From positions 163,184,001 through 163,248,000 of the forward strand of contig OX597816.1 in NCBI GenBank assembly GCA_951406725.2: a DNA stretch of 64,000 nt. Direction: 5' to 3'. The position numbers were made by a program, and so were the translations under genes. Source of the stretch: Octopus vulgaris (taxonomy: Eukaryota). The notes beneath the pieces are model-generated. The model was given only the letters and a program-made list of their open reading frames with translations. It had not been told where the DNA came from and did not search any database. Within the stretch, counting starts at the first letter, position 1, and each line of letters opens with the position of its first letter. Positions 5,837 through 37,782 of the stretch are shown here, in pieces.

Positions 5837-5882
<46 letters not shown>

Positions 5883-6047
5883 GGCGCAGGAGTGGCTGTG
5901 TGCTAAGTAGCTTGCTAACCAACCACATGGTTCCGGGTTCAGTCCCACTGCGTGGCATCTTGGGCAGGTGTCTTCTGCTATAGCCCCGGGCCGGCCAATG
6001 CCTTGTGTGTGGATTTGGTAGACGGAAACTGAAAGAAGCCTGTCGTA

Positions 6048-6122
<75 letters not shown>

Positions 6123-6315
6123 CTGTGTTTGTCCCCTTAGCATTGCTTGACAACCGATGCTGGTGTGTTTACATCCCCGTCACTTAGCGGTTCGGCAAAA
6201 GAGACCGATAGAATGAGTACTGGGCTTACAAAGAATAAGTCCCGGGGTCGATTTGCTCGACTAAAGGCGGTGCCCCAGCATGGTCGCAGTCAAATGACTG
6301 AAACAAGTAAAAGAG
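5883..6315 (+). mobile_element. tRNA-derived SINE family A (CORE-like), full length
   Basis: A box TGGCTGTGTG, B box GGTTCAGTCCC, CORE-like CTTGGGCAGGT, internal (TA)n(TG)n, tail CAGTCAAATGACTGAAAC. Confidence 0.92.
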
Positions 6316-6551
6316 TATATCTGTCTGTTGATTTAAATATTTGCCATCCTATGTATCAGTCTAGTTACTCATTGCCTATGTATATATGCAGGTATATATA
6401 TTTCTGTCTGTTTGTCTGTCTGTATGTATGTATGTATGTACGCATGTATGTATACATGTATGTATATGTATGTACGTAAGTATTTAAATAGGTATGTATA
6501 TGCATGTATTTGCACACCTCACAACCACATATCTACTTACCTACTCACGTT

Positions 6552-6583
<32 letters not shown>

Positions 6584-6585
6584 AG

Positions 6586-6684
6586 TTCCTTGTTTTTCCT
6601 GATGAGAAGGCGGCATAATGCACCCCTTATTCCTTCGAAATTAGGAATATGCAGCCTTCGAAACTTATGTCGAAAATAAAGGAA
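6586..6684 (+). ncRNA. Type-I hammerhead ribozyme in a ~137-bp (TA)n-flanked unit
   Basis: CTGATGA 6599-6605; helix II GAAGGC..GCCTTC; GAAAC 6660-6664; helix III AC-TTAT-GT; GTC 6669-6671; helix I 6586-6598 pairs with 6672-6684. Confidence 0.85.
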
Positions 6685-6717
6685 TTTTGTTAATTCGTCG
6701 TTCAACTCCATTCTTTC

Positions 6718-6758
<41 letters not shown>

Positions 6759-6759
6759 G

Positions 6760-7051
6760 TGATGGTAACTTAATTTCTTTGTACTTACCCTGATTTCTGT
6801 CATGCTTGTCACATTTCCAGGGATATGTGGGGGGGGGGTTAAGGAGTTTTCGACACTGATTTTCACACCATATAATTACCTGTTTGTAAATTTTACTTTT
6901 TTAAATAATATGACTGTAATTTTTTTAAGCCCCACCAAGGGGCTTTTTGCCATCGTTGGTTTGGGAAATTGGGCGATTTTCAGCATGCGTGTATATGAGT
7001 GGAAATGGGTTGCTTGGCGGAGGTCTGCGCTCTCCGAGTGCTTTTCTAGTT
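6760..7051 (+). mobile_element. Helentron-type non-autonomous element (HINE/DINE-1-like), 3' part
   Basis: Ends CTTGGCGGAGGT-CTGCGCTCTCCGAGTGC-TTTTCTAGTT, the same subTIR and hairpin as the 40985-42843 elements; left boundary uncertain. Confidence 0.65.
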
Positions 7052-7167
7052 ATAAATTAATTATAAAATTTTGCATTTGCCATTTATCGACTTTTTGCTT
7101 CCTGGCCACTTATATTATTGTTGTTATTATTCATTTTACAAATGATAATAATTAATAATAATACCTA

Positions 7168-7567
7168 GGCGCAGGAGTGGCTGTGTGGTAAGTAGCTTGC
7201 TAACCAACCACATGGTTCCGGGTTCAGTCCCACTGCGTGGCATCTTGGACAAGTGTCTTCTGCTCTAGCCCCGGGCCGACCGAAGCCTTGTGAGTGGATT
7301 TGGTAGACGGAAACTGAAAGAAGCCTGTCGTATATATGTGTATAAATATATGTGTTTGTCTGTGTCTGTGTTTGTCCCCCTAGCATTGCTTGACAGCCGA
7401 TACTGGTGTGTTTACGTGCCCGTCACTTAGCGGTTCGGCAAAAGAGACCGATAGAATAAGTACTGGGCTTACAAAGAATAAGTCCCGAGGTCGATTTGCT
7501 CGACTAAAGGCGGTGCTCCAGCATGGCCGCAGTCAAATGACTGAAACAAGTAAAAAAGAGTAAAGAG
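7168..7567 (+). mobile_element. SINE family A, full length
   Basis: Near-identical to 5883-6315. Confidence 0.92.
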
Positions 7568-15237: not shown

Positions 15238-15503
15238 TATATATTGTTTTTAAACAAGAATGTCATTGATCTCGACTTCGATGTTTCGGTCGGCTGTACC
15301 GCTAAGCCATTGTCCGTAGTGCTTATAGCTGGTCGGAACTTCGAAATCACTCTCAACGATATTCTTGTATAAGAATAATCAATTTGTACTCTGCAAAAGT
15401 ATAAAATAATCAATCCGCTTAATAAACATGAAAACAAACATTAGCACAGATAGCTTGACAGACACACACACACACATATAATTATATATTATGTATATAT
15501 ACA

Positions 15504-15539
<36 letters not shown>

Positions 15540-16128
15540 AAAAGCAATAAAGATTCAAGTTAATTTAAATGAATTTACTTGAATATGGTACCTAACTTAG
15601 ATGCACCAAAAAAAACTATACTGATTTAACAATACAGTAATGTGGGGTGATTATAAGCGAGAATGAAGCAACAAGAATGGATAGGTTTTTAGTACAATCG
15701 TTTCATACAAGGACAGGTTTTATTAAAAGTTGCAAAAATTACAGCATATAAACGTGTCCCGTACTCATCAGCTAAAATACATGTGAGTTCTCTAGACATC
15801 CTAGTGGTTGAGGCTATACTCATGAAGTAATGTAGATAATTAAGTAACATAAACAGATTTCAAAAGTTCATTAAAGTTCTTTAAAGATGATGTACAGTCT
15901 TATCACAGAATTTTAAAAAAAAGTCTTAATAGCATCACAGAGAAGGTGACCCAATCCATAGTGCACATATGAATTTCCAGAGATATGATGAGGGATTACA
16001 TACTCACAGAAGGCAAATTTATCCATTGTTAATTACAACGAGGTGGGTTTCAATTCCTGCTTATTAGCATTATAGAGAGGGTGAGTTAATCCTTTGTATA
16101 GATGCACAATTTCCAATGCTTCATTCTC
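15540..16128 (-). mobile_element. Probable Penelope-like element terminal-repeat fragment
   Basis: (TA)n on both sides and contains a hammerhead; no RT or GIY-YIG coding seen, so the class is inferred. Confidence 0.55.
15687..15777 (-). ncRNA. Type-I hammerhead ribozyme
   Basis: Minus strand: TTTTAG-CTGATGA-GTACGGGACA..TGTCCTTGTAT-GAAAC-GATT-GTA-CTAAAA. Confidence 0.8.
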
Positions 16129-16130
16129 GC

Positions 16131-16168
<38 letters not shown>

Positions 16169-17342: not shown

Positions 17343-18204
17343 TATGTAGTCTGATCAATAAGTATCCGGACTGTTGCTATAGCGAAGCTAAAACGCAGAG
17401 TAAAGCCACTTGGCAAAGATTGACGTTGAGATCTGATGTGCATGTTCACTAAGTTTTGACGTTCTAGCTCATGTCCATTGTTCACAGCAGAGTTTGGAAG
17501 GAAGGTGTGTAGTGTGTGATCATCGCAGTGACCATGACAAAGTTGAGTAGAAAATCTGCATCAAATTTTGCCAAAAGCTTAGCGATACCTGCTCAGAGGC
17601 CTACGCAAATTTTTCAAAAAGTTTTCATCGTTCTCAACACAATCAAGGAGATCTTGTGCAATTGAAACCCGAGTCTTTTTGGTCGGTTGAAAATAGTTTG
17701 AGCAGAAAATTAGCAGACACGCGTCTCATAGCCAATTCTTCAGTGATAATGGACTGAGCTGAACCGTAACTAATCTGCATATCTGATAACTTACGGATGA
17801 GGATTCGACGATTTCCCCTCACAGCTGCACGCACGTCTGCAATGTTTTTCTCAGTTCTGCTGATTGCAGGTCTCCCAGAGCATTCGTCAATATCGACATT
17901 TTTTCGGCCATCTTGGAAACGTCTGAACCACTCGTACACTTGTGTGCCGCTCATACACTCTTTTCCATACACTTTCTATATCCTTACGCCATGACAACTT
18001 TCTGTATTGGTCAATGCGACGATCATACGCTACCCACCTTCCTTCCAAGCACTGCTGCAAACAGCGGAAGTGAGCTAAAACATTAAAACTTGGTGTGCAT
18101 GCACAACAGTGTACAATGTCCATCTTTGCCAAGCGGCTTTACTCTGAGTGCTTTAGCTTCTTTACTATGGCAACAGTCCGCATACTTATCGATCTGACCT
18201 CGTA
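17343..18204. mobile_element. Foldback mariner derivative made of two 5' ends
   Basis: TA-flanked TIRs (GTCTGATCAATAAGTATCCGGACTGTTG); arms inverted over ~200 bp; minus frame VYEWFRRFQDGRKNVDIDECSGRP..MRRVSANF; plus arm ICIKFCQKL. Confidence 0.88.
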
Positions 18205-27616: not shown

Positions 27617-27850
27617 AATCATATATATTTGCATATGTATATATACAAATCAAACATTTGAGACAAATGGAAAAAACAAGAGTCTGTAAGACGTATACAA
27701 TGAATATATTACCTAGTGAAAGTTTTAGATTGAAGAAATGGGATTGAAAAGGACGTTTCGAGCATGGCTCGTCGTCGGAAAGAGGTAAGAGTGCAGAGAG
27801 GAGATAAAGGAAGAAATAGTAGATAGTCTGGAGAAAAGCGTTATATATAT

Positions 27851-36164: not shown

Positions 36165-37448
36165 TCTCACTTTCTGATATGTTGTCTATTCTGTATTTTA
36201 TGTAGTTTGTTCTTAGTGCTTGCTCTTAGTGCTTGCTCTTGGGCAGCACAGATTACAGCCTCCGTTTCCAGTTTTAAATTACTTTTAGTCATGTTCAGCC
36301 ATATTTTTTCTCTGTCTGTCTTATCTTCAGCATTCCTATGAAATTGACCATGCTTTCTTTCCTTTACCCACCTATTTTCAGTTTCATTCATTTTCAATTT
36401 CTTGTATAGTGCTTTATCTTTGCAATCTTTCATCCTACGCAAGCCTGACCTTCTTACTTCTAATAATAGCGATTATGTGGCATTTTTAACAAACCATGCT
36501 ATGCTGCTTTCTCCTGCTCTAATGCTGCGTTCGCATCCAATAATTATTTCTCTTCCTCCTCTTTTTCTTGGTACATACAGTCTGTCTGTGTCACTTTTTT
36601 GGTGGAGTGTCCCATATCTAGTTAGCAATTTCATTGTCTTCGTGTCTAAGCTGTTTAGTTCGTCTACTCTCCATGTGATTACCCCTGTTATCGTATCTAA
36701 GGAGTGAAACCACCCAGGTGTTGATAGCTTCGATCTTATTCCGTCCGCTTAATTTCGACTTAAGTATCAGTCTCAGTCTGCGCAAGTACTCCACCTTAAA
36801 TGTTTCTGTCATTTCTTCCTCCATCAATTTATTCATTTCCAAAATCCACTAGTACTTATTAGCCTGTCTCTTCTATTTGCTTCATGACCTCCCCCGATGG
36901 TATTGTTAGCCCGCCCATTACATTTGATTTTGCCTATCTTCAAAACTAACTCATCATATTTTCTCAGTCCGTACTCCATTCTGATATCAGCACTGAAGGT
37001 ATACACCATATCAACGAGGGAACTGACTTGGGCTTCATCTTTTCCATAAAGTTTGAGGTCATCTATGAATAACAAATGGTCGACTTTTTGTTGGCGTCTT
37101 TTGAATACATACCTAGCTTTTGCTTTCCTCGGAATCAGTGTTAGTGGTATCAAGCACAGTACAAAGGTCAGTGGGGACAGGCAGTCTCCTTGGAAGAAGC
37201 TCCTCCTAATTTCTACTGTCCCTAAGCTTCTTCCGTATGCTGTCAGATCCGTCCTCCAATTCGCCATAATTTTTCCAAGCAATCGCTCAACGTTCGATGC
37301 AATACCAAATAGGTTCGTACATTCCATAATCCAATAATGTGGGATCATGTCGTACGCCTTACGGTAGTCGATCCATGACATGGCTAAGTTACTTTTCCTC
37401 CTCTTGCAGTCTCTAAGTACAGCTTTGTCAATCAGGAGTTGATCCTTG

Positions 37449-37512
<64 letters not shown>

Positions 37513-37782
37513 CATCATCATCATCATTATTATAAACAAGATATCGGCCTGTAATTGTCTACCGTATTGCCTTTTTCGATGATTTTTCAAGCACAGCACT
37601 GTCCTATCCAACGGTGTTACTTGGACGGCATTTAACAAGGTGTTGAGTTGAGCAGCTATTCGTGCATGACATTCACCAGATCTTTTGATCCAGTAACCTT
37701 GAACTTTATTGGTCCCGGAGCCTTCCAGTCGCTTATTATTTTTTTTTCTTTTTGGATGATTTCCTTACTTTCCTAACATGAA
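36165..37782 (-). mobile_element. R4/Dong-type reverse transcriptase pseudogene
   Basis: [55 protein letters not shown]; same family as 1288-2624; frameshifted; (TTA)n at 37451-37533. Confidence 0.93.

Follow-up and report, generated by a model that had tools for sequence, protein, structure and literature searches.

A 137-bp unit inserted in a (TA)n microsatellite of Octopus vulgaris carries a complete type I hammerhead motif and is one member of a repeat family with many copies. We put at about 60% the probability that it is a 5′-truncated copy of a TA-targeting Penelope-like element (PLE), reduced to the 3′ end (terminal repeat). The unit occupies positions 6584-6720 on the plus strand of the 64-kb stretch of DNA analyzed here (the window), a microsatellite-rich animal sequence containing no N. 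As the initial annotation had it, (TA)n lies on both sides, in tracts at 6556-6583 and 6721-6756 that we presume to be the left and right halves of the target site. Both the hammerhead and the repeat family are real, and their kind has already been described.

Anatomy of the hammerhead

A complete hammerhead core had been proposed for this unit, and all of its bases are indeed in place: C3-U4-G5-A6-U7-G8-A9 (CTGATGA, 6599-6605), G12-A13-A14-A15.1 (GAAA, 6660-6663) and, at the end of the 6660-6671 segment, U16.1-C17 within GTC (6669-6671). The conserved CUGANGA/GAAA/UH core is surrounded by three helices of which helix I forms the open end, as in type I hammerheads. Helix I (6586-6598 with 6672-6684) pairs at 11 of its 13 positions, as annotated, with mismatches at 6592/6678 and 6593/6677. 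Folding allows it to be extended through 6583-6585/6685-6687, so that the helix starts where the unit does. Helix III is confirmed as having only two base pairs, A6663-U6670 and C6664-G6669, which enclose the loop UUAU, and cleavage is predicted between 6671 and 6672. Beyond helix I, a 36-nt tail (6685-6720) completes the unit; it presumably forms the element's 3′ terminus, from which reverse transcription would begin.

The helix II region spans 6606-6659, and 11 of the 12 positions in its two strands (6606-6617 with 6648-6659) are paired. The long helix II of the initial annotation therefore holds, although the seven-pair hairpin nested within it (6628-6634/6643-6649) does so only in part. 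Because 6648-6649 are common to both structures, only five pairs of the hairpin (6630-6634/6643-6647) can coexist with the full helix II. We regard the long, branched helix II as a modest structural variation on the known kind.

Predicted pair probabilities for the monomer are 0.95-1.0 in helix I and 0.65-0.95 in inner helix II but only about 0.02 in helix III. The minimum free energy (MFE) has a z-score of −2.36, with equally good folds in 3 of 200 shuffles. A descriptor demanding an intact core, helices I and II of at least 4 bp and GAAAC-N0-6-GTH matches twice in the real 64-kb window. The Rfam hammerhead models, proposed earlier as a check, did not recognize the motif. They gave no match at gathering score in the whole window, nor were they among the 38 matches obtained at E values up to 10 over 6400-6900, most of which came from miRNA models matching TA/TATG repeats. 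This miss is probably explained by the 54-nt helix II region. With a high-copy hammerhead family escaping Rfam, such genomes probably contain more hammerheads than have been counted.

By inspection, ATG-initiated frames inside the unit also stop within it, and an ORF that begins in the hammerhead, as that of the Anolis element does, was rejected. Two strings within helix II resemble the A and B boxes of Pol III promoters (6611-6621 and 6656-6664). Each lacks key bases, the unit starts 27 nt ahead of the first box-like string and ARAGORN predicts no gene, and the reading as a Pol III, tRNA-derived SINE was rejected. The tRNA-like spacing of the two strings is taken as coincidence.

Family depth and the helix III palindrome

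The repeat family was sampled in four of 24 public sequencing runs (X1, X2, X5 and X14, the last putatively RNA, from three studies and with species labels A, B and C), using contigs at 80% likeness and with 6340-6592 and 6706-6763, that is, both ends of the unit, masked. Within the unmasked part, the runs listed no joints. Contig depth summed over 6592-6703 amounts to 2.6e5-8.4e5 in X1 and X2 and to 1.6e4-1.2e5 in X5. These values are 2,200-18,300 times the median depth of the eight long pieces given for each run, a ratio that falls to 70-590 on division by 31 for overlapping contigs; summed contig depth is not a copy number and reads only as "many copies". The last bin of the unit is deeper than the first by factors of 2.6, 2.6 and 7.1 in X1, X2 and X5, respectively, a weak hint of 3′ bias that subfamily divergence would produce equally well.

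At position 6665, A accounts for 99-100% of the depth in all four runs, while the window copy has U. In the family majority the helix III loop is therefore AUAU, and the helix forms a perfect palindrome, ACAUAUGU. At least five substitutions at frequencies of 1% or more, counted among 40 of 107 variants, fall inside the unit, and none of those listed affects a core base. The 6674 A>G and 6655 C>T variants keep their pairs in helices I and II as G·U wobbles, and those at 6626 and 6638 occupy loop positions. A subfamily visible in the loose ends of contigs carries four changes in the 3′ arm of helix II, which still pairs at 11 of 12 positions with the 5′ arm of the window copy; by inspection, it also retains the inner hairpin, with a shorter loop. 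Because the pair-keeping changes are one-sided (transitions to G·U among the substitutions, with no double compensatory change among the variants listed), they lend the structure moderate support. The 3′ strand of helix I (6672-6684) includes an AATAAA at 6675-6680, which survives the common 6674 variant, and a few copies duplicate AAAAT directly after the cut site.

The unit occurs once in the 64-kb window, with no tandem copy at the locus. Its self-BLAST there returns only short matches at E values of 0.28 or worse, the best two in LINE reverse transcriptase remnants. Viral, metagenome and genome contig collections scanned for the family gave no match. Relaxed-pattern scans of the contig collections picked up three plus two loci; none of the five has a helix I or a helix II, pairing there being limited to 1-2 bp, and they were dismissed as chance. 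We found no prior description of this hammerhead family in literature that did not extend to some of the large PLE hammerhead lists, so an earlier description is possible.

The difference at 6665 has a predicted functional cost. These estimates come from secondary-structure prediction, which omits tertiary terms. The helix III self-duplex is predicted at −7.0 kcal/mol for the family palindrome and at +0.8 kcal/mol for this copy, so the U at 6665 is predicted to abolish the dimer helix. Whichever letter occupies 6665, adopting the active monomer fold costs a predicted 2.9 kcal/mol; because this penalty is equal in both forms, the change should affect the dimer route and not the monomer. The loop of this copy instead pairs with core bases 6602-6605 with a predicted probability of 0.83, compared with at most 0.03 for the family letter. 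This lone copy is thus likely passive, a remnant that at most cleaves weakly as a monomer. Monomer cleavage to some extent is possible, since invertebrate retrozyme hammerheads with a short helix III are described as cleaving efficiently in that form (PMC7761336; PMC7229834). A single minimal hammerhead (min-HHR) did not cleave, and dimers had low activity (PMC4209133); eight of nine dimers tested in a retrozyme/PLE study did not cleave (bioRxiv 10.64898/2026.07.22.740005). The claim that the ribozyme could cleave any plus-strand transcript is unsupported in light of the predicted monomer fold cost of about 2.9 kcal/mol and the lost dimer palindrome, and no host gene whose transcript would cross the unit was found among the 150 of 415 frames searched. 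The palindromic family form and this non-palindromic copy make a natural pair for probing dimer-dependent cleavage and what it may do for PLEs.

Origin of the insert

The placement of the unit among type I hammerheads of the PLE or retrozyme kind, in which helix III is very short, is supported. With the hammerheads described for metazoan PLEs (Cervera & de la Pena 2014, PMC4209133) it shares the type I organization, a G10.1-C11.1 pair, a helix II longer than usual, the lack of a canonical loop I-loop II geometry, a dispersed, single-motif occurrence and, in the unit's family, a short helix III with a palindromic loop. The same work describes PLE terminal repeats whose hammerheads combine a long helix II with an absent or small palindromic helix III, reports dimer action through such a helix, and finds most PLE-type motifs to be single ones that probably stem from truncated copies. 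The unit differs from these hammerheads in its helix II (11-12 bp with a nested hairpin and a 54-nt spacer, versus 7-8 bp). Two further differences weigh against the truncated-PLE reading: helix I is a two-part, 13-bp helix with 11 pairs, compared with 4-5 bp in PLE min-HHRs, and there is no unpaired, bulged base after A9.

The location of the hammerhead also fits a PLE. Its cut site lies 49 nt from the downstream (TA)n, a PLE-type 3′-end position. The (TA)n-targeting EN+ PLEs of the Hydra clade, including Hydra-1_Obim (Craig et al. 2021, PMC8557442), likewise carry a hammerhead in their last ~100-220 nt and leave no readable target duplication. According to Files S1/S2 of that study, the hammerhead is at 2403 of 2507 in Hydra-1_Obim and at 2245 of 2346 in Penelope-3_HM, and both Hydra-clade and Naiad PLEs, Octopus families included, prefer (TA)n. 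The Hydra-clade helix III, however, is mostly 3-4 bp with loops of 1-3 nt, and helix II is short. Nor does the unit match the listed consensus motifs in sequence: its exact motifs are absent from the Octopus Naiad/Hydra consensus and hammerhead tables published there, as far as exact strings can tell when line breaks can hide matches. The supplement of the same study yields incidental matches in unrelated coding sequence and a 9-nt tail motif that also follows the Hydra-2_Amil hammerhead and is too short to count. Exact unit motifs are likewise missing from the supplement of PMC13282606, which contains no repeat library. PLEs as such account for 6.83% of the O. vulgaris genome and fall into 190 families (PMC13282606), and Penelope is among the expanded coleoid families in a report whose relevant part mentions no ribozymes (PMC8967140).

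A relaxed scan found four hammerhead-like motifs in the window, including the one at 6586-6684, and in all four a (TA)n tract follows the cut site, at distances of 49, 97, 106 and 155 nt; as a background, 12-13% of positions have (TA)n within 160 nt, a threshold chosen post hoc. One of the other three is an intact type I hammerhead on the minus strand (15771-15693), matched by the descriptor and located within a 594-bp insert (15538-16131) between TA tracts. It too has a long helix II (a 7-bp run with a 60-nt spacer), along with a GAUU loop and a GUA cut site, and its MFE fold is not a hammerhead. The remaining two, at 24247-24220 and 58623-58596 on the minus strand, are copies of a minimal-hammerhead family with a bulged A, a GAGC/GCTC helix II, GAAACGT and one core mismatch each, affecting A6. 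Between the core and a TA tract ~100 nt downstream the two copies share 78-80% likeness, and upstream they are dissimilar. The sequence kept before the core amounts to 15 nt in the unit at 6586, as against 360 nt at 15771-15693, 58 nt at 24247-24220 and 134 nt at 58623-58596. Variable upstream extents combined with a fixed (TA)n side are the pattern expected of 3′ ends with variable 5′ truncation.

By the truncated-PLE reading, the GIY-YIG endonuclease of the element would have nicked the (TA)n tract, and its reverse transcriptase would have started on an uncleaved transcript ~49 nt beyond the cut site and halted just after helix I, that is, after 137 nt. In the parent element, the palindromic helix III may allow two tandem hammerheads to pair with each other and cut as a dimer, perhaps aided by the protein of the element. 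This route has biochemical precedent in a PLE protein that nicks AT-rich DNA and begins reverse transcription inside the RNA slightly past the hammerhead (PMC11167929). In vitro, the RNA that this protein inserts is uncleaved, and initiation falls 111-118 nt into an ORF with a start codon 26 nt ahead of the hammerhead cut; the hammerhead of that PLE cuts only when the protein is present (PMC11167929). PLE insertions are reported to be mostly 5′-truncated (bioRxiv 10.64898/2026.07.22.740005). Counting against this reading, no parent ORF could be tied to the family, and in the window itself no PLE domain was detected by Pfam in 150 of the 415 candidate frames.

Random truncation does not predict that the left end of the unit coincides with the foot of helix I, and this is the best argument for a close relative of the truncated-PLE reading, which we consider the main, tentative alternative. 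Here the unit would be a non-autonomous, PLE-mobilized element, either as a retrozyme monomer or as a mini-element of fixed length that consists of the ribozyme only; read-through from tandem copies, dimeric cutting and circularization would be followed by copying into (TA)n by a PLE protein acting in trans. The unit does resemble animal non-LTR retrozymes in being non-coding, in its type I hammerhead with a weak palindromic helix III and in its high copy number and low GC content (PMC7229834; bioRxiv 10.64898/2026.07.22.740005). Its hammerhead is intact across the cut site, as copying of a ligated circle would leave it, although an uncleaved linear PLE transcript equally yields an intact hammerhead (PMC11167929). 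The family is homogeneous, with few substitutions (five among those listed, at 1% or more), and a dimer palindrome implies that tandem copies exist at some locus. Retrozyme monomers are also known as solo copies, and retrozymes are described as deriving from PLE terminal repeats (bioRxiv 10.64898/2026.07.22.740005). Yet retrozymes are tandem units of ~150-390 bp that make circular RNA (PMC7229834; PMC7761336), while this unit, known here from its sequence, lacks the tandem arrangement, with one copy in 64 kb. At 137 bp it is also shorter than the animal retrozyme monomers reported at ~150-300 bp (PMC7761336) or 220-390 bp (PMC7229834), and the neighboring hammerhead inserts vary in their 5′ extent. 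The coincidence at the left end could instead reflect selection of the unit by the initial annotation or a TA run in the 3′ UTR of the parent. Contig depth bears out a mobile, high-copy family, as had been proposed, but not the 137-bp unit itself as the mobile entity, since a truncated PLE end accounts for the unit no less well.

The most specific form of this alternative seems doubtful. It holds that the unit is a mini-retroelement consisting of the ribozyme only, with a fixed length of 137 nt, shorter than the retrozymes described so far, and with ends set by helix I and a 49-nt tail, that has spread to hundreds or thousands of TA tracts of several related species through Penelope machinery, hidden from Rfam and published descriptors by its long, branched helix II. 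If copies do share both ends, no retrozyme-like element would be smaller, and the unit would offer PLE reverse transcriptase a convenient minimal substrate.

A hammerhead of another retroelement group, or a Naiad-type PLE motif concealed from descriptors by its long helix II, is improbable. (TA)n is indeed the target of Octopus Naiads, one of which, Naiad_Ovul, carries the label HHR_half_core for core halves 35-50 nt apart (PMC8557442), compared with the 54-nt spacer here; Rfam misses the motif of the unit as well. Against this, no unit motif matches a Naiad consensus at the right place (in an exact-string search, where line breaks can hide matches), and cephalopod Naiads are called long-inactive remnants (PMC8557442), whereas the unit's family looks homogeneous. 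Least probable is a host-co-opted ribozyme regulating a plus-strand transcript, or a chance fold: the intact core of this copy and its AATAAA at 6675-6680 would suit the former, but the unit is a high-copy repeat in a microsatellite with a copy-specific loss of the palindrome and no host gene domain appears in 150 of 415 frames by Pfam, and the motif is not due to chance because none of 300 block-wise dinucleotide shuffles of the window matches the descriptor.

Genomic surroundings

Across the 150 of 415 frames searched, Pfam identifies one clear reverse transcriptase domain, two weak transposon-type matches and two sub-threshold ones without clear meaning, and no convincing host gene. LINE remnants lie on the minus strand at 36170-37760 (RVT_1 at 36836-37558, E 1e-12) and 1750-2600 (weak zf-RVT at 1754-1954), which share sequence near 2449 and 36749. 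A weak mariner HTH match lies at 17646-17975. At the start of the 594-bp insert that carries the minus-strand hammerhead, a 32-aa ORF end (16036-16131, minus strand) resembles a GIY-YIG C-terminus, a likeness that protein searches did not confirm: they gave two matches to unrelated repetitive proteins, no Pfam family and no homologue.

Two degenerate motifs also occur on the minus strand near TA tracts. One at ~27740-27770 is minimal-hammerhead-like (CCGACGA, GAGC/GCTC, GAAACGTC), has no helix I and lies upstream of a TA tract. The other, at ~15270-15360, is a hammerhead-like 3′ half (GAAAC-ATCGAA-GTC) shortly before a TA tract, with its CUGANGA half unrecognizable.

The unit is flanked on the plus strand by SINE-like repeat copies at 5876-6315 and 7161-7558 that are 92-94% alike and that we take to resemble octopus SINEs. 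Another two multi-copy repeat fragments, at 6944-7051 and 7050-7167 (plus strand), have sharp ends shared in three DNA-type runs.
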